A stretch of DNA of 62,328 nt, filler included. It is 11 parts of 11 records of this genome, joined end to end, with 100 filler letters (N's around TTAATTAATTAA, not from the genome) between each part and the next. Parts side by side here need not be neighbours in the genome. Positions count along the whole stretch, not along the records: positions 8,877 to 19,538 come from SRR15195285_489; 10 more parts are not named here. One strand, 5' to 3'. Position 1 is the first letter of the stretch; each line of letters begins with the position of its first letter. The position numbers and the translations under genes are program-made. Shown in pieces: positions 3,028 to 47,000 of this stretch. Under the pieces are notes generated by a model. The model was not told the DNA's origin. It saw only the letters and a list, made by a program, of their open reading frames with translations, and did not search any database.

Positions 3028-3127
3028 NNNNNNNNNNNNNNNNNNNNNNNNNNNNNNNNNNNNNNNNNNNNTTAATTAATTAANNNNNNNNNNNNNNNNN
3101 NNNNNNNNNNNNNNNNNNNNNNNNNNN
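3028..3127. other. Artificial contig spacer N-TTAATTAATTAA-N (also 8777-8876, 19539-19638, 24282-24381, 28559-28658, 39073-39172, 43537-43636, 48565-48664, 52131-52230, 57244-57343)
   Basis: Ten identical 100-nt spacers with a 12-mer that gives stops in all six frames. Confidence 0.98.
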
Positions 3128-8617: not shown

Positions 8618-8990
8618 ACAACGCCCTCTGCCGGCCTTGTCTCCCCGGGGGGAGCGGGTCAGCTGCGGCTGGCGGCCACCGTCAGGATCCCCGACCCCAT
8701 CGACCGTCCATGGCTGCCCCACCGGTCTAGTCGACTCAGTCAGTGGGTCAGGATTCAATGCACAGGGGGGGGGGGGNNNNNNNNNNNNNNNNNNNNNNNN
8801 NNNNNNNNNNNNNNNNNNNNTTAATTAATTAANNNNNNNNNNNNNNNNNNNNNNNNNNNNNNNNNNNNNNNNNNNNATTGACTGGGGCGAAAAAGCGGAC
8901 TTTTCAAGCATACAGTTGACTGAGATGTGTCCCACCTCATAGAGCTGACTGCGGAGGTTCGACGACGGTACGGTACAGCGATCTGCCGCC

Positions 8991-13762: not shown

Positions 13763-16700
13763 CTAGAACAGCTGGCGGTCCTCCGGAAATCGTGCGGCAA
13801 GGCTTTGTCGGCACAGCAAATCCAAGTGCTCCCACCCAAGCTCCTTCATGAGATCCGCGCGCTCACCCCTGCGACGCACACAATCATGCATGTATGATTG
13901 TACATGTGCGGTAAAATCGTCTCGAGAGTCCGATGACAAGTTCAGAGACCATGACAGGAGCCGCTACTTACCAGGCATCGCGCGACACACCCTTATCCTC
14001 TTTCTTTATCGCCGCCTCCAATGCCTTGAGCGCACACGCAGTTCGACCGTGTGCCTTCTCCACCTTGACCATCAGCCTGTTCTCACAGCAAAATGTTTAA
14101 TCATTTCCCAATGTCAACCAGTTGTTTGGCAACATCAACGATTTCTGTGGAAATTTAGTGAAAGTTTCGAGCAGTACCGTGGAGCATGCTCGAGTGGCTC
14201 AACCCATCCGCTGAGCACTGCAACAGAGCACTCCAGCTCTGCGAGTGTACTTGGGTCCGCGCCGTCTCGCAGCGCGAGGGCTGCCTGAGCGGTTGCCTTG
14301 CTCACCTGTCACGCGTAGTTTGCCTTTAAACGCCATAAAGGCTTGCAGGAGTTTGGCGTGGCTCACGAGTGCTGCGAGGAGCGACTTCTTGAGGTTCTCA
14401 TCGTCCTGCCGGAGTTTCTTCGTCGCAGCATCGGCATCATCGAGGAGACGCTTCGCAAGCGCCGCCTGCGCGTCAACAATGTCGAATGCACACCTCTAAT
14501 GCAATTATACGCTAGCGACGGTTGTGACGTAGATCACGCAAAATTTAGCTGGCTTGGCTTGAGGGCACACCTGCACGCGGTCCGCGTCGATCTCAGCAAG
14601 CACAGCCTCAGCTGCAGACACGACGGCAGCCCACGCCGACTCAGCTTCTCCTTCCTCTGCCTTTTCGGCATCCTTTTTGGCACGCTCCATTGCCTCCTGC
14701 AGTAGTGAGCGAATCTATTATTAATAGACAGCTGTTCGAATAGTGAGTAAAGGAACAGCGGCCTGGCGATAATGTTTGTGCAGTGCTTTTGTCCTGCTGA
14801 CAATATACGGCACCCGGACTAGAAATCAGGTGCGATCGACAGACACGACGATCTCACCGAGAGCAGCGGCAAGTGTGTAGGATACTCCTTCAGCAGCTCC
14901 GCCAGCATCATTCCGTAGTCCTCTTTGTCCTTCGTTGCACTGAGCTGCTTAATCTGCAACTCGCGGATCGCCTCTTTATTCTTCTCCGCTTCGGAGCGCG
15001 TGTCCTCCGGCTCGTCAGCAACTGGTTTCGGCTCGCTCGCCAGTCCGGGCGGAACTGTGTAGCGTGCCGTGATACGAGCACTGCGCCATCGAACACCGAA
15101 ACCAAATCAGATACCTCCATGGTTCTGGTGGAAAGCCCAGCGTTAACAGCGCAGCGGTTGAAGACACATTGGATAGCTCACCAGTTGCTCTTGCCCTCAA
15201 TGAAGTCTTCCGCTGGAGCCGCAGATTCAAACTTGATCGCGCCCAGCAGTGTATCCCCCGGCTCAACACCTTTGATGTCTGTCGCAGCGCTGTCGTCAAC
15301 TGAGAAAAATATTGGCATGCATTCGCCGCCAGCGAGCCGCGTCAAGCTGGGTGCCTTGCCTGTGCACAGCATAACATCTCTCTCTCTCAGATCCCAACAA
15401 TTCCGACCAGAGACAGCATGCAATTTTTTGTCACACCAGTGCCTGCAATCGCGTTGTTGGCGCTGTTGTATGCAGTGAGCGGGACAGACTTTGGGAGATC
15501 AGTGTCTACCCCGATGACCTGTCAAACAAACATACATGCGCGCACGCACACGCACACGTACACATACACGTATCTCTCACCACGATGTTTTGAGAGATTA
15601 GACTGGTGCAGTCGCGCGCGAAGAATTCATCATACCATCCCAACAAAGGCTTTGAGGCTAGACGCCGAAGCTCCACGGATCTGCATGACCACGGTATTCT
15701 TGCCCTTCGGCAACTTCAGCTCCTCTGGCCAGGCATCGGAGGCACCAAGAAAGCGCTTGTGCTCGTCATAAACCATCATGAGCTGGCACATCAAACGATT
15801 TGTCAGATTCTCAATTGTTGCTTCTTCAGGGCAGATATCTGGGCGCACCTGTGACTCAATAGGATTCTCATACAGGCGATTCTGCACGCGGAGGGCACGG
15901 AGGGTAACACTGCTATCCTCTTTCAGCTCTAGCTCGTACTCCTGTTGCAGCTCGTGAGAGCGCTGCAAAACGATCGTGGCACATACGAGTTAACTCAAGC
16001 CAAGGTGCAAAAGAGGAAGTACACGACATTCGGGAAATGTTTGGGAACTCTTCTTACCTGCTCATCTGGGAAGAGGTCACGTTCTCCCAGTGGAACTATG
16101 CTAGCACCAGATTTCGGGCGCAACAGCCGACGTTGCACAGTAAGCGACGCCGAGGGCGAGACAGCTGTGCTGCCGATAGTTTCCGGCGCGGTAATGTCAA
16201 TGCGTGCGATGGACTGTGCGCCGTCAAGAACAAGGTCGGTCGTACTAGCTGTCACTCCGTGGAACGTAATTGATATCCCTGCTAGCCCTGAGCCAAGGCT
16301 CGACCAGAATTGCGCCAGGGTCAGCTCCAGCGTCCGTCCTCCCCAGACCTTAAACTTGTGAACCTTTTTGTCTCCTTGATTCGCAAACCACCGTGGCTTG
16401 TGTTCCGTGAGCGAAAACGGCACGTGCGGGACCAGCTGCAGAGCGTGCATGTACAGCATGCGACGATCTCCTCCTAGACCTGTGTACGAGTCCATTCCCA
16501 CTGTCACCTCAGCCCAAGTAGCGCCAGCTGGGACCGCAATGAAGTGGCGATGAATTGCCCCAGGCGACATTTGCAGCGATTTCGGCGGTGCACACACAAC
16601 CTCAGGGGCACCCGCCGCACTGACATCAACCCCGGTGGGTTTCATCACGCAGACTGGTACACGGAAAAGTGGTTGACCGACTTCGCCCTCGGGGCTAGGT

Positions 16701-19128
16701 GCTTCATAACCTAAAACTTCAGCATGGTGTGCTGCACCTTCGGGGAGTGCAGTAGTGTCGACTGAGACATTGAAACCTGCAATAAGAGACACCGCCCGTG
16801 TTCACAAAAGCATTACGCAATTGCATATATACTCGATGCTGATGTGTACATGCAATTCGTATGCGCAGCTCTGTGACCGCAAGTACAGCAAGTGCTACTG
16901 GAGAGGGAGAAAGGAGGTGGGTGCAGAAACATTCGTCTCAGTGTGACGTACCACGACCTGTGGCCATCAGCACCAAAGCTGATGGTACTTTGATCCAGTC
17001 CACGGTCGGCACAAGAAGTACATGAGACTCGAAATCAATCCGCAATTGGTTGTCGGATTTCATCACACGCGATCCTGTAGGCGCCGAGGTCTGGTCTTGC
17101 ATCCGCGGTGTAACGGAAACCATCACCTGCTGCGTCCCCATCTCGCATGGCTCTCGTAGGTAAATTCCTTTCTTAGGAGCGCCAGAGCCTGCGAACACAA
17201 CACCAGGTAGCAGAATTCATATAATCGATTATTGATTCTGCTCGCTGATCTATACTCGCTGCCCTTGTGAAGATGTCTCTGCTAGTTTCGTTTCGTCTAT
17301 TGGCTGCTTCGTTATTCTGCTCACCATGACCTGGCATGCTGACGCTGACGTCGTAGCTGATATCATCTGTCCACTTATCCGCACGCGACTTGAGGTATTC
17401 GAAGCACGCATCGACCTACTCCAGCGTAATCCAGCGCACAGCGCAGCAGTTCAGCAGTTCGGTCGTGTATGACTTTTCGCGAAGAATCCAGCAACGGGGA
17501 TCAAGTACCTGGACGATGCCGTGGCCCACCTCCGAGCGGTCGGCGCCCGGCAGCGGCTTTGCGGTGCTGATCAACGCGTGCCGCACGCGCGCTGGTGTTG
17601 CGGGGATTGAATGAGCCTTGCACGCAGAAAGAACCAGAGCGACACAGCCTGTGAGGTTCGGAGATGACATCGAGGTACCTGAGGTTCGACACAGCCCGTG
17701 AGGTTAGAAAATGACACCCAGGTACCTGAGGTTAGGAGATGACTCGATACCGTTCATCAGCTGGCCGCGTTGTAGAGTCCAGGTTGGGACTGATGTGATA
17801 GCTGCCCCAGGCGCAGTAAGCTGTACGCCTTGAGAGCCGTCCTGAGCAGGCCCACGGCTGGACCATGTCGTCATGGTACTCGGCACCTTCTCAAGCATCG
17901 AGTACTCAGCCTCCATCATTGCTGGTGTCACGTACGCTCCACAAGAGATAATCTCTTCACAAGTCCCACCCGGTGCCCCGACAGTCGTGTATGCGGGCCC
18001 GTTGTTCCCCGCAGAGGATATAAAGATGATGCCGTGCTTGTTGACCACCTCGGCGGCCTTCTCAAGGAAGCGCCCGGCATTTGGTGGCGATGCGGCCTCA
18101 CCGAAGGAAAGATTGATGAGGTCACAGCCATTGTCCAGCACAGTGCGCAGCCCGCGGACAAGCGCCGAAGCAGTCTCCATACCGTCCAGCCGCGAGTCAC
18201 CGATCTTCACAGCGACAATCTGCGCACCGGGCGCCACCCCGTTGAACTCGGGGGCATCTTCGTGGCATGCGCCCACGATGCCGGCGACATGCGTGCCATG
18301 AGCCCCACTGTCGCATACGACGCTGAGCACGCTGCCTTCGTCAAAGATATTGATGGCATAGTTCATCAGCGTACCTGCAGGGTCGAGATTCTCGCCCGTG
18401 AACGTCCCGTACTTGCGTTCTGCGCGGAAGTTCGTGAGTGGCTCGAGGGCCGAGACGTCACCATCATCAGTCGTGCCGACCACCGCTCGCCAGTCAGAGC
18501 CGTCGTGCCACACGACCGCATCAATCACGGGCCCCAAATCCTTCACTATCGACTCTGCACTCTCCAGCTGCTCAAGGTGCGCCTTGAGCTCCCGCTGTGT
18601 GGCCTTGTCCTCCTCGCTGAGGGGTTTGCTGACGGGATGGGCCACCTCGAACTCGCTCAACACGGTGCGTGCCTTAGTGGTGGCGGCCCGCTGCGCCTCA
18701 TCGAAAAATTTCTTGCGCGCCTTCTTGATCCGGCTCGCTAGCCCACCAGGAATGACATCGTAGAGCGGTTTCGCCCCAACTCTGAAGTTGCCGGTCGGAT
18801 TCGACCACCCGTCGTTGAGGGTGATTGTGCGCCCTGACTTGCCCTCGATGGTGAGCTTGCCGTCCGCCACTTTCGCTTCCCGCACGGTGCTCGTGTCGAT
18901 GTCGCCCGAGCCAGTGGCGTCCACAACGTCGATGACCTTCGGCCTGCCGTCTGGGCACGTCGCGTTCAGCCCAGGAGCCCCCGGGTCCGTACCCGTGTCG
19001 AGAATCGCCACCACCACATTCCGTCCGTCGCACTCCGGATACTTCGACAGGAACATCTCCGCCTGCGTGCTGGCCGTCGGCACCCGCACCGAGTCCGCAG
19101 GGAACGTCGCCGTCGGCTGCTCCGCCAT
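13763..19128 (-). CDS. TPP2: Tripeptidyl-peptidase II (subtilisin S8 family); multi-intron
   Basis: Catalytic motifs VAILDTG, HGTHVAGI, SAGNNGP and MNG|TSMSSPN (restored by splicing 17750-17679); C-terminus LMKELGWEHL..RFPEDRQLF-stop typical of TPPII. Confidence 0.95.
17679..17750 (-). other. 72-nt intron made of degenerate tandem copies of the downstream exon
   Basis: Intron gtatcgagtcatctcctaacctcag|gtacctgggtgtcattttctaacctcacgggctgtgtcgaacctcag vs exon gtacctcgatgtcatctccgaacctcacaggctgtgtc; contains an in-frame TAA. Confidence 0.9.
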
Positions 19129-19638
19129 CCTCCCACCTGAATACGTCTGTACGCGAATTCCGCTGCTGCGACGCCTCCAGCACGGCGCACGGGCGCTGCT
19201 CTGCAACACGAGGTGGCTGCGCCCGGATCCAGTAGAGCGCCTCGCCAGCGTCGGCAGTAGCGAGCCTCGCGAGCACCGAATTGTGAACCAAAACTGTTGC
19301 ACACGATGGCCAACAGGCACTCTACACGTACCCAGTATATATAGATAGTAGGCAGAGACTGCGCACGGACAGCCGTGTACACCTGAGGACGACTATCACT
19401 GCTCCTGGCGGTCCCTCGCGCTCGCGATCAGCCAATCGCGCCGCGCGCCGCGCCCCCGCGCGCGGCGCGGGCGCGGGGGCACGCGTGCTGACTCGGGCCG
19501 GGGACATTGGCCATGACAATGTGATTTAGCGGTCGGGGNNNNNNNNNNNNNNNNNNNNNNNNNNNNNNNNNNNNNNNNNNNNTTAATTAATTAANNNNNN
19601 NNNNNNNNNNNNNNNNNNNNNNNNNNNNNNNNNNNNNN

Positions 19639-44091: not shown

Positions 44092-47000
44092 ATGCCGAGG
44101 CATGGGCGCACGACCGTGGGTGTGGCGGGGCGCGGGGCTGGGCGTGGGCGGGAGCTGGAAGAGGCGTGGCGCTGCCTGCGCACAACCAAGGTCCGGGCGG
44201 CATACTCGCGAGATAGTCAGCGGATTGGGGTGATCGAGCGTGGCGAGCTGGTCAAGTCCATCGAAGAGCGCACAGACGAGCTCGGCAGGCCGCAGCATCG
44301 TCTCAGCTGGCCCCTGAAGGGATGGGTGAGTGAGACTACCAGCAACGGTGACGTGGTGTTCTGTTCAGCTGAGACGGACGACCTTTCATCTAGCAATGAC
44401 GATATGATTGAGACACGCCCCGATAGCCGTCGACGATCTCAGAGCACTGCGGTGACCCGCGGCCGCCGGCAGCCCTCGCCGCAATCGAGAACGAATCGGC
44501 ACGAGGCTGAGCAGTTCGTCTGCCTGAACCGCGCGCCGCTACGCGTTGGATTGGACATGCTGTCGGAGCGAGCTGGGTTCGTCGAGCCAGGCGATATTAT
44601 TAGAGTGCTAGATGTCCGATTCAACGATAAGGGGCAGCGACAGCTACGCTGCGAAGCTGGATGGGTGATGGAATACGGCTGGACAGGAACGCAAATGTTC
44701 CAGCCGCTCGACCCAACCGCGGCGATGGGCGATTCCTCATCTTCGTCCGAGGGCGTGCAAATAGCAATGGTTGTAGAACGGGAGCTTTCTCGTCGTCAGT
44801 CACGCTCGCCGAGTCCCGTGCGTCACCGGCGTCGTTCGAGTTCGCGCTCACCGTCGTCACCGGCACGCCGCGGCTCGTTGAGCGCACGCAGACGACGTGC
44901 TGAGCAACGCAGCCCTGGGGGGCGCAGCATGTCTGCAGGACGGGCACGAAGGCGTACGCGGCGCCTCTCTGCCGTCGGAAGCGAGCACAGCGACGTCTCT
45001 GGTGACGAAAGCTTGGTGGATGGCAGTCACACAGAGGCACAAGCACGTGAGTATTTTGCAACAATGCTAGGGCTGGCGGGAGCAATCACAGACAGTCATA
45101 TCGACAAAGCGATGGGCATGGCAGCGGAGCGCGGGCTAGTTAACGCCGCGCAGTGCTCGCGGATAAAGAGGCAGGCAGGACGTGCGAAGATCGTGACTGC
45201 ATTCAACATCATGAATGCGGCAGGGTCAGTGCAGCACCGCCGCTCTCGCACCGCGGCCGTGGCAGAAGCGCAGCCTGTTCGGCGCACGTTGAGCCCGAGG
45301 TCACAGCAACGTTTTGTTTCACGGATGCAGCAGGACGCTCAGCAGCGCGAGGAGTATCTTGATCAGTTGCGGGACCTGCACTCTGAGCAGCACTCGCGAC
45401 GAGCGAAATACATCGACCGGCGCGCGCACGAGGACTTGCTGGCACGCATGGAAGCGCACACACACCAACGCGAAGAGGAGTTGGAGCTATATCGAAGTAG
45501 ACCTGACCTAGTGGACCCGCACCTTGTATTTCAGCCAACTATCAACAGACGGGTGCCCAGCACTCGAAGGAGATCTTCTCCGGCACGCTCTCCAATGCGG
45601 CGTGCGGAAAGTCGCCACCTGGACCAAATGAACGCAGCCAGAGCCAGGGCTGCTTCCATAAATCGGAACACGCACTTGCGCCGCCCAAAATCACCACGCC
45701 GGACTAATTCGCCTGAGTTGGTTCCAATTTCAGACAAAAGCGTTCTGCGGGAACAAATTATCGAGATTTTTGAGCTGCACAATCCAGCTAAGCTGGACAG
45801 CGTGGATACTTTAATCGAGAAGTATGGCGCGGAGCCATTGCTGCGTCGGATGGAAGATAAGTACTCACGCACGCTGGAACCAATTGAGAGATCGCTGCGG
45901 GTGCGATCGCCAAAGCAGTTGCAGAGCCCTCGTGGCGGAGCGACGTTGAGTCCAAAGAATCGGCGTGTTACCTCGGCTCGGCGGCGGCAGCCTGTCAACA
46001 AGGGCACGCTGAAAACAGCCTCGGTCTCGCGCAATCTACCTACGCATGCAAGCCCAGGTCGCACCCGAGGTGATTCGCCAGGGCGGCAGCAAGGCGATAG
46101 CGTCTCGACGCGCGCAGAGGTATCGCACGACGACTACTCGGATGAATCAGCTGAAAGGATCGCGCTGAGCCGAAGCCGTAGACGGTTGCGCCCAGATTCA
46201 GCGGCTCGTGCAACTTCAGCGAGCAAGTCTCGTGCAACTTCAGCGAGCAAGTCGTCGAGCCGTCGTCGTTCTCCGTCACCGAAGGCGAGGGGGAAACTGC
46301 GGGCGAAGGATAGAGACCGGAGGCCTGCACGCAACGCGCCACCAGCAAGAAGCAAGGAAAGTGGCTTTCGCGCAATGCCAAGGCTCACACAGGATCAGAA
46401 ACAGGTCATAAATCTCTGTGTGAGTATGGTGGACCGCCACGGCACAGGCTTTGAGGCCAAGCTTCGGAATCATGCATCCGAGGATCCTCTGCTCGAGTTT
46501 TTCCTCGACAAAACCTCAGATGCGTGGAAACACTACCATCAGATTTTGAACGACATAGACCGTCGCAAACCATCCAACTTCAAGCAATACCTGGAGAGCA
46601 TGGTGCTGACTGATGTGAGCGCGGTCAGGCGCGCCCTCGAATGTGAACGTATCGAATCTATGGATGACTGGGATGCCTTGGATGAAGCTGAAATAGATGA
46701 CCTCCTGCGATTCTTATCGTCGGCATCGAACATCAAGGATCGAGACCTTGGAATCATCGAGGGCCACTTGCGTGGAGATTTGCATGCGTTCGACAATTTT
46801 GCACGCCGCCAATCAACCTCTCCATCCAGAAACCGTCGCAAGGACGTAAGAGGATCGTATCCAGAACCAGAGCCTGAACCTGAACCGGAGTACAGGAGCC
46901 CTGTGCACGAAGACGGTCGATCTGCTGGAACACTAGGTACAAGATCTAGTGCCAGTGGCGGCAGCAGGCACATACCTGCTCGCACTGGCTCATCTAAGTC

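Follow-up and report, generated by a model that had tools for sequence, protein, structure and literature searches.

The DNA considered here is a window of 62,328 bases (the whole stretch that was analysed), in which 11 contigs are joined by ten linkers, each made of 44 N, TTAATTAATTAA and a further 44 N. On the minus strand of the contig at 8877-19538 lies a gene for tripeptidyl-peptidase II (TPP2), whose first open reading frame (ORF) runs from a Met codon at 19128 to a stop at 17704. That stop falls within 72 nucleotides (nt), at 17750-17679, that interrupt the codons for the motif around the catalytic serine. This insert is, quite probably, a young spliceosomal intron, created from coding sequence of TPP2 through two nested tandem duplications in a Picozoa-like marine protist. 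The public runs that contain this stretch are marine or seawater metagenomes. The label “Picozoa-like” is used because the nearest named relative of the TPP2 product (87% identity) is a EukProt accession naming Picozoa sp.

Domains and motifs together identify the gene. The first 459 residues match Pfam Peptidase_S8 (E=1.2e-31) as well as the solved Drosophila TPPII structure 3lxu (E=1.4e-89, chain residues 9-459, with an alignment that ends ...QLMN). The 56 residues encoded from 17676 align to residues 461-515 of 3lxu, directly continuing exon 1, and the product of exon 2 covers the end of the Peptidase_S8 profile (positions 239-288). ORFs farther downstream carry the Pfam domains TPPII_GBD (galactose-binding-like) and TPPII Ig-like-1. 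The translation contains DTGTD, HGTHVAG and, once the 72 nt are excised, GTSMSSP. By this domain and motif content, the gene is a tripeptidyl-peptidase II, of the S8 subtilase family. The residues that we take to be catalytic, including the Ser of GTSMSSP, were chosen from general knowledge of the family.

Exon 1 ends ...ATGAACG at 17751, and exon sequence resumes with GTACC at 17678. An initial annotation, made from the letters of the window, described the 72 nt between as decayed copies, 25 and 47 nt long, of the exon just downstream, each beginning GTA and ending CTCAG. Coordinates and sequence agree with this description for both copies, called A and B here, which also both carry CTAAC where the exon has CGAAC. 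At 17640-17733, Tandem Repeats Finder (TRF) reports a repeat of period 47 (2.0 copies, 87% matches, score 146), the top of nine tandem repeats in the window. Aligned locally to the 120 nt of exon that follow, the 72 nt score 48, where shuffled sequences average 13.6 ± 2.2 (z=16; 0 of 300 shuffles reach 48). The same shuffle test finds no resemblance between the other five TPP2 introns and their own flanks (z from -1.5 to 1.7). Searched against the window with blastn-short, the insert hits the adjoining exon at E=5e-8. Thus, the insert is homologous to the adjoining exon and in tandem with it, and the observation as such is confirmed. The scan for introns that resemble their flanking exon covered the 62-kb window, where this intron alone qualifies; it is the only one involved in any of the four local direct-repeat families found there.

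The initial annotation had both copies descend from one 30-nt segment of the exon. Derivation from the exon stands, and the single unit gives way to nested duplications, of 28 nt and then of 47 nt. The order is read from an 8-mer, AACCTCAG, with which both A and B end and which spans a junction that does not exist in intron-less sequence. Such a junction had to arise once before it could be copied, and this fixes which event came first. In the first step, a 28-nt stretch that begins with the second G of the Gly codon (GGT) and ends ...CCTCA would have been duplicated in tandem. The new junction, CTCA/GGTACC, has the form of a 3' splice site (CAG) in front of the original exon start. In the second step, a 47-nt unit, the repeat of which is seen directly, would have been duplicated; it comprises 7 nt of copy 1, copy 2 in full (28 nt) and 12 nt beyond it. 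The present 72 nt would result from 7 later substitutions and the loss of 3 bases.

The product of these two steps was scripted from the present exon alone and aligned to the observed 191 nt. The model predicts an insert of 75 nt (28+47) where 72 are observed, and over the 194 aligned columns there are 7 mismatches and 3 gap columns, none of them outside the insert. Together with the TRF result and the z value of 16, this fit upholds the original proposal of tandem duplication of the exon that carries the catalytic serine. Origin by duplication is very likely.

In the last step of the model, the donor for the spliceosome would be the GT that belonged to the original Gly codon (17750), and the acceptor would be the CAG of the last junction (17679), with the CTAAC that lies 26 nt upstream of the acceptor probably serving as branch site. 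The messenger RNA (mRNA) would then encode an unchanged TPP2, catalytic serine included. All of these putative splice signals would come from the codons of the Gly-Thr-Ser-Met-Ser-Ser-Pro-Asn-Leu motif.

The coding consequences fit this model. Read through from exon 1, the sequence gives 15 extra codons past the Gly and then the in-frame TAA that had been noted from the start, at 17706-17704, so that the ORF ends ...MNGIESSPNLRYLGVIF. Every GT/GC..AG excision between anchors in both exons was scored against three relatives, L001, P0124 and P0121, which are described below. Removal of 17750-17679 scores best against all three (226, 191 and 219). The runner-up, an excision of 39 nt that leaves 11 extra residues, scores 205, 170 and 198. 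The best excision restores the protein of the relatives, ...LMNGTSMSSPNLTGC..., as had been foreseen, and with it the ancestral coding sequence. It also makes exon 1 (to 3lxu residue 459) and exon 2 (residues 461-515) exactly collinear. Introns 2-6 were defined by the same excision scoring (Table 1). The insert, at 72 nt, falls inside the 66-175 nt span of these other introns; GC content is 0.44-0.54 in the introns, compared with 0.62 in exon 1. Copy B and the exon differ by four amino-acid changes, and all of these, among them the loss of the catalytic Ser, lie on the side of B.

Table 1. Exons, introns and repeat units of the TPP2 gene, in window coordinates
Feature	Position	Strand	Description
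TPP2 exon 1	17751..19128	-	Met codon to first G of the Gly codon in GTSM; 459 full codons
Putative intron 1	17679..17750	-	72 nt, phase 1, 5' GTATCG...CTCAG 3'; consists wholly of decayed copies of the downstream exon
Copy A	17726..17750	-	25 nt, apparent remnant of the first 28-nt duplicate minus 3 bases; provides the putative 5' splice site; CTAAC at 17735-17731
Copy B	17679..17725	-	47 nt: 39 nt matching the exon start, then the 8-nt junction motif AACCTCAG at the putative 3' splice site
First 47-nt tandem unit	17687..17733	-	from TRF and repeat search; 87% identical to the second unit
Second 47-nt tandem unit	17640..17686	-	last 8 nt of the putative intron and first 39 nt of exon 2 (source sequence)
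TPP2 exon 2	17509..17678	-	starts with GT of the Gly codon, then Thr-Ser-Met-Ser-Ser-Pro-Asn; presumed catalytic-Ser codon 17673-17671
Intron 2	17416..17508	-	93 nt, GTACTT..TAG; common to the P0245 and P0249 lineages, absent in L001
Intron 3	17189..17324	-	136 nt; common to the P0245 lineage, absent in L001
Intron 4	16777..16951	-	175 nt; absent in L001
Intron 5	15963..16057	-	95 nt; by excision scoring
Intron 6	15783..15848	-	66 nt; by excision scoring

In the strict (Rogers) form of the mechanism, an AGGT within the duplicated exon segment supplies both splice sites. This arrangement is not what is found here: the context of the donor is ACG/GT, and the AG of the acceptor is formed at the novel junction CTCA/GG. 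The CTAAC of copy B lies at 17707-17703, where it overlaps the TAA and offers A 17704 as candidate branch nucleotide, 26 nt from the end of the intron. Intron 1 has a YTRAY motif (CTAAC, at -26) in the interval 20-30 nt from its 3' end, as have two of the five other introns. This means that the branch-site consensus is loose in this gene, and that weight placed on CTAAC has no local backing.

The initial annotation went further and saw, in the change of CGAAC to CTAAC, a branch point gained in both copies. Both do carry CTAAC; convergent creation of a branch point is unsupported. The exon reads CCG AAC where the copies read CCT AAC, CCT and CCG being synonymous in the exon, and L001 has G. In P0247, a diverged relative, translation of the exon copy in its shifted frame gives Leu where the window has Arg, which places a T at that base in the P0247 exon. 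One synonymous T-to-G change in the window exon explains the pattern as well as two parallel G-to-T changes, so convergence does not follow, and T may be ancestral at this site.

Within copy B, at 17710-17705, three of the six substitutions relative to the exon lie within 5 nt and are all to T (CATCTCCG to CATTTTCT), giving a T-rich run just before CTAAC. The cluster is absent from the B copy of the P0247 lineage, which is still Ser-Ser-Pro there. It may reflect tuning of the new intron or a single multi-base mutation.

The length of the insert, the changes that fall on copy B, the low ratio of nonsynonymous to synonymous divergence on either side and the pattern of differences in P0247 (the last two given below) suit an intron better than coding sequence or a dead gene. 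To judge from the sequence, the putative 72-nt intron is likely to be a working one.

Relatives both with and without the insert exist. All 11 members of a 90%-identity cluster around P0121 were read, and eight of them reach the site. Three of these have the same insert, one has a longer, frame-shifting, collinear variant, and four have none. The three carriers (P0241, P0242 and P0250) end ...MNG(I/T)ESSPNLRYLGVIF, which is the read-through tail of the window. P0241 is identical to the window and P0242 has 3 residue differences. P0250 has all 460 exon-1 residues as in the window, with a tail of MNGTESS for MNGIESS. This Thr in place of Ile implies a T/C polymorphism at 17747 (intron position +4), that is, a 5' site that is either GTAC or GTAT within the population; GTAC is the sequence of the source exon.

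The four ORFs that do not have the insert are P0121, P0245 and P0248 (94% identical), and P0249. They read straight through ...LMNGTSMS(A/S)PNLTGC.... All four run on into intron 2, and P0121, P0245 and P0248 also into intron 3. Because they retain intron 2, they are genomic sequences that share those introns and are without intron 1.

At this site P0247, from an 876-nt contig, carries another insert: 27 residues follow MNG, and after them the exon copy appears in the +1 frame. The length of the insert, deduced from the reading frames, is 83 nt, which does not divide by 3. Starting in the tail of copy A, P0247 aligns without gaps to the same-frame translation of the window, with 27 of 36 residues identical; the differences number 1 in 14 exon-copy positions, versus 8 in 22 intron positions. 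Its B copy has the Met-to-Val change in common with the B copy of the window and is otherwise different. As far as the residues tell, this variant fits one origin followed by an early split. The gain would then precede the split of the window and P0247 lineages, and come after or around their split from the intron-less sisters. A search with the P0247 tail for further carriers of the insert gave no candidate.

Beyond the cluster, a metagenome scan delivered 71 wider TPP2 loci, of which L001 is the only close one. A scan of genome contigs for DNA of close relatives found only 5 distant bacterial loci, and a scan of viral contigs found none. L001 DNA is uninterrupted at the site (GGC ACC TCG ATG), and P0124 (82% identical) is uninterrupted over 793 residues. 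In 70 of the 71 wider loci the motif lies in one tblastn piece spanning ±8 residues; in the remaining one, L071, the piece stops 7 residues past the site. Of those 70 contiguous loci, 34 are split into at least 4 tblastn pieces and are taken to be intron-bearing eukaryotic genes. Thus, the insert is absent from the four cluster ORFs, from L001, from P0124 and from 70 of 71 wider loci, and none of these has an older intron at this position, an outcome in keeping with the gain that the initial annotation proposed. The protein tree does not settle the polarity of the change.

Where it overlaps the window gene, L001 is without introns 1-4 of the window, and it has two introns elsewhere. These lie at L001 positions 1-120, before VVNKHG, and 990-1102, after ...ILGYE, both at places where the window has no intron; the one before VVNKHG seems to be common to L001 and the Picozoa-named P0122, whose ORF ends ...KAAEVRFP. 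This mismatch between L001 and the window implies a rapid turnover of intron positions among these close lineages.

Several observations weigh against a young, working intron. Contigs of four runs were compared with the gene, two of DNA (X1 and X2) and two metatranscriptomes (X14 and X15). The metatranscriptome contigs leave 17594-17962 uncovered, and no joint is found anywhere on the gene. Contigs at 17358-17593 (X14) and 17317-17538 (X15) run unspliced through intron 2, and X14 is also unspliced across intron 5 and both borders of intron 6. Being unspliced at introns 2, 5 and 6, these contigs resemble DNA or pre-mRNA and are therefore uninformative on splicing. The 5' site itself, GTATCG after ACG, is unlike those of the other five introns, three of which are CAG/GT. 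The 28-nt intermediate shifts the frame and is shorter than every intron seen here, which makes the first step alone hard to tolerate, except where the second followed almost at once or TPP2 could be spared for a time. P0247 is known from protein alone, and the length of its insert from frame logic.

The evolutionary analysis adds to these difficulties. An IQ-TREE phylogeny of 17 rows, two of them outgroups, with rows trimmed to residues encoded by exon 1, leaves the close lineages a polytomy; the best tree requires 2 changes of the intron label, and 1 is still allowed. Given the polytomy, the sister lineages may have lost the intron. Between the window and L001, synonymous sites are saturated (proportion of synonymous differences, pS, 0.58-0.68). 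The ratio of nonsynonymous to synonymous divergence (dN/dS) downstream of the insert therefore has low power over the short time since duplication, and dating by dS fails. Downstream dN (0.057) is also somewhat above upstream dN (0.032).

One rival reading is that the tandem duplication is simply disabling. The insert would then be no intron at all, and in this population TPP2, cut short at the TAA and without its catalytic serine, would count as a null allele or a young pseudogene. Such an allele would be expected to yield no spliced RNA contig, and none is found, although X14 and X15 leave the site uncovered; its read-through would stop as observed, after 15 extra codons, and the slight excess of downstream dN would suit it. 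Against this reading, the insert with intact flanks is present in three strain-level ORFs from different sources, in addition to the diverged variant. The conserved residues are all kept in the exon copy and lost in copy B. Every downstream exon tested is open and collinear with relatives, and dN/dS between window and L001 stays near 0.03 on both sides of the insert, 0.029 upstream (99 codons) and 0.032 downstream (190 codons). Further, the GT..AG borders fall exactly at the sole positions that restore the ancestral protein. A disabling duplication is thus improbable.

Quite improbable, too, is a gain that is not recent, in which an old intron was precisely lost in the intron-less relatives, or in which conversion from the exon replaced the sequence of an older, unrelated intron. 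The polytomy and the heavy intron turnover, illustrated by L001 with none of introns 1-4 and two others instead, leave room for such histories. The insert is, however, still 87% exon-like, while the synonymous sites that separate window and L001 are saturated; this argues for an insert far more recent than the window-L001 split. In the P0245 lineage, introns 2 and 3, which start about 170 and 355 nt downstream of the site, are retained and yet intron 1 is absent, and the wider loci, 70 of 71, have no intron at the site. Against conversion stands the novel junction repeated twice, which is a signature of duplication.

A working intron might also be spliced otherwise than the best excision predicts. 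The donor GTGTCA at 17717 could be joined to the same acceptor, which would give a 39-nt intron and an in-frame insert of 11 residues before the serine, or 25 and then 47 nt could be removed stepwise. The 39-nt excision is in frame, contains no stop and has the second-best score (205 versus 226). Stepwise removal was suggested by the likeness of 17726/17725 to a recursive splice site, and the motif, CAG/GTACC, does exist. Recursive splicing itself remains unsupported; it needs a 25-nt intron, and both 25 and 39 nt are below all five other introns. An insert directly before the catalytic Ser would, moreover, interrupt a motif that 70 of 71 loci have in one piece. The 5' part in P0247 differs in length, and not by whole codons, so that it preserves no reading frame. 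Another splice pattern is accordingly very improbable.

An artefact of assembly or amplification, which might be feared in a draft of short contigs joined by linkers, is refuted by independently assembled contigs from two studies that span 17750-17679 and by ORFs from Logan, JGI and NCBI sources that share the tail. The X1 contig (3,246 nt) covers 16185-19430 with 0 gaps, and X1 may be the source sample. The X2 contig (522 nt) comes from a different study and covers 17468-17989 with 0 differences. Because the contigs of two separate studies cross it, the insert is real DNA, and the misassembly or chimera that the initial annotation had kept in view is excluded.

A more specific, and more doubtful, history for the young intron is a birth in stages within wild populations. 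Here, a frame-shifting and probably unspliceable 28-nt duplication would have been rescued by the 47-nt duplication, which brought it to a spliceable length; donor, branch site and acceptor would all come from codons of an active-site motif that is universally conserved, and carriers, non-carriers and a length variant would coexist in the ocean. This is possible rather than probable. Should it be true, the de novo creation of an intron and its early tuning (the T-rich cluster of copy B, the T/C at +4) would be measurable in environmental RNA and DNA.

The origin of introns is a long-standing question, and gained introns whose source sequence can be traced are few, according to the portions of PMC4974935 drawn on here. 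The documented introns born by duplication that are named in these portions and in those of PMC3265369 are in vertebrate ATP2A1 (PMC3265369), in two fission-yeast genes and in potato RdRp (PMC4974935). As far as these portions describe it, the ATP2A1 intron resembles that of TPP2 in that it came from a duplicated adjoining exon, drew its GT and AG from the duplicates, and left mRNA and protein unchanged (in TPP2, by predicted splicing) (PMC3265369). The cases differ in that TPP2 has CGGT rather than AGGT in the exon, and its AG was apparently created at the duplication junction, not copied; in that TPP2 appears to have undergone two nested duplications (28 and 47 nt) instead of one, giving a 72-nt intron in an uncultured protist; and in that the ATP2A1 event is ancient, while the TPP2 copies are still 87% alike and the intron is known here from sequence alone (PMC3265369).

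The potato RdRp intron, in the corresponding part of its report, is likewise a recent tandem duplication with a clear source and absent in relatives (Ma, Lan & Niu 2016, PMC4974935). There, however, the duplicated segment lies across an intron-exon boundary that already existed and takes over its branch and 3' site, unlike TPP2, where the putative signals would all come from coding sequence (PMC4974935). Duplication without AGGT, as a variant form of the mechanism, was argued for potato (PMC4974935). By analogy, the TPP2 insert is an instance of the exon-duplication mechanism in this variant form, without AGGT.

Two further kinds of gained intron invite comparison. In a microbial eukaryote, an intron built of 24-bp tandem units is short like that of TPP2 and, like it, consists of two or more tandem copies of a short piece of exon. 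There, the units are equal, each carries AGGT, and expressed sequence tags (ESTs) provide evidence; in TPP2, the units are unequal and nested, come from an active-site motif, and are known from sequence alone. Introners are dispersed, multi-copy elements, with recent gains in marine protists and presence/absence differences among close lineages. The TPP2 intron is like them in being a recent gain in a marine protist, present or absent among close lineages, and unlike them in matching only its own flanking exon in 62 kb. Neither blastn-short nor the repeat search found a dispersed copy of the 72 nt within the window, and within the window nothing marks it as an introner-type mobile intron.

The papers searched contain no report of intron gain in tripeptidyl-peptidase genes or in Picozoa. 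The mechanism is known, though rarely documented, and not a new one; the TPP2 case is new and well preserved. It is set apart from the documented cases also by its place in the catalytic-serine motif and by the intron-less sisters and the length variant found in environmental populations. Its source adjoins it and is 87% identical, the order of duplication can be read, and intron-less sisters and a diverged variant exist. The case suggests that coding sequence, even that of an active-site motif, can supply donor, acceptor and probably branch site in a compact protist genome. Its value is that of a clean natural example and a test case.

Some features of the assembly are recorded for completeness. 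One X2 contig skips 131 nt at 15785-15917 (ends GC..AT, with 32 nt on the shorter side), comprising intron 6 and about 68 nt of exon; this could be a strain variant or a mis-join. At 15530-15573, a CA/CG-rich stretch of low complexity has a summed contig depth of 106-1186 in all four runs, compared with about 4 elsewhere, and many loose ends; most of this depth probably comes from repeats of other organisms, not from TPP2. The linkers of the window include those at 3028-3127, 8777-8876 and 19539-19638, with seven further sites, and “genes” that neighbour one another across a linker are therefore not physically linked. Finally, at 46205-46252 on the plus strand, a perfect 24-nt tandem duplication lies in frame within a 1,521-codon open frame, where it adds to a Ser/Arg-rich stretch as a repeat of 8 residues; it is the second very young, small tandem duplication of coding sequence in this assembly.

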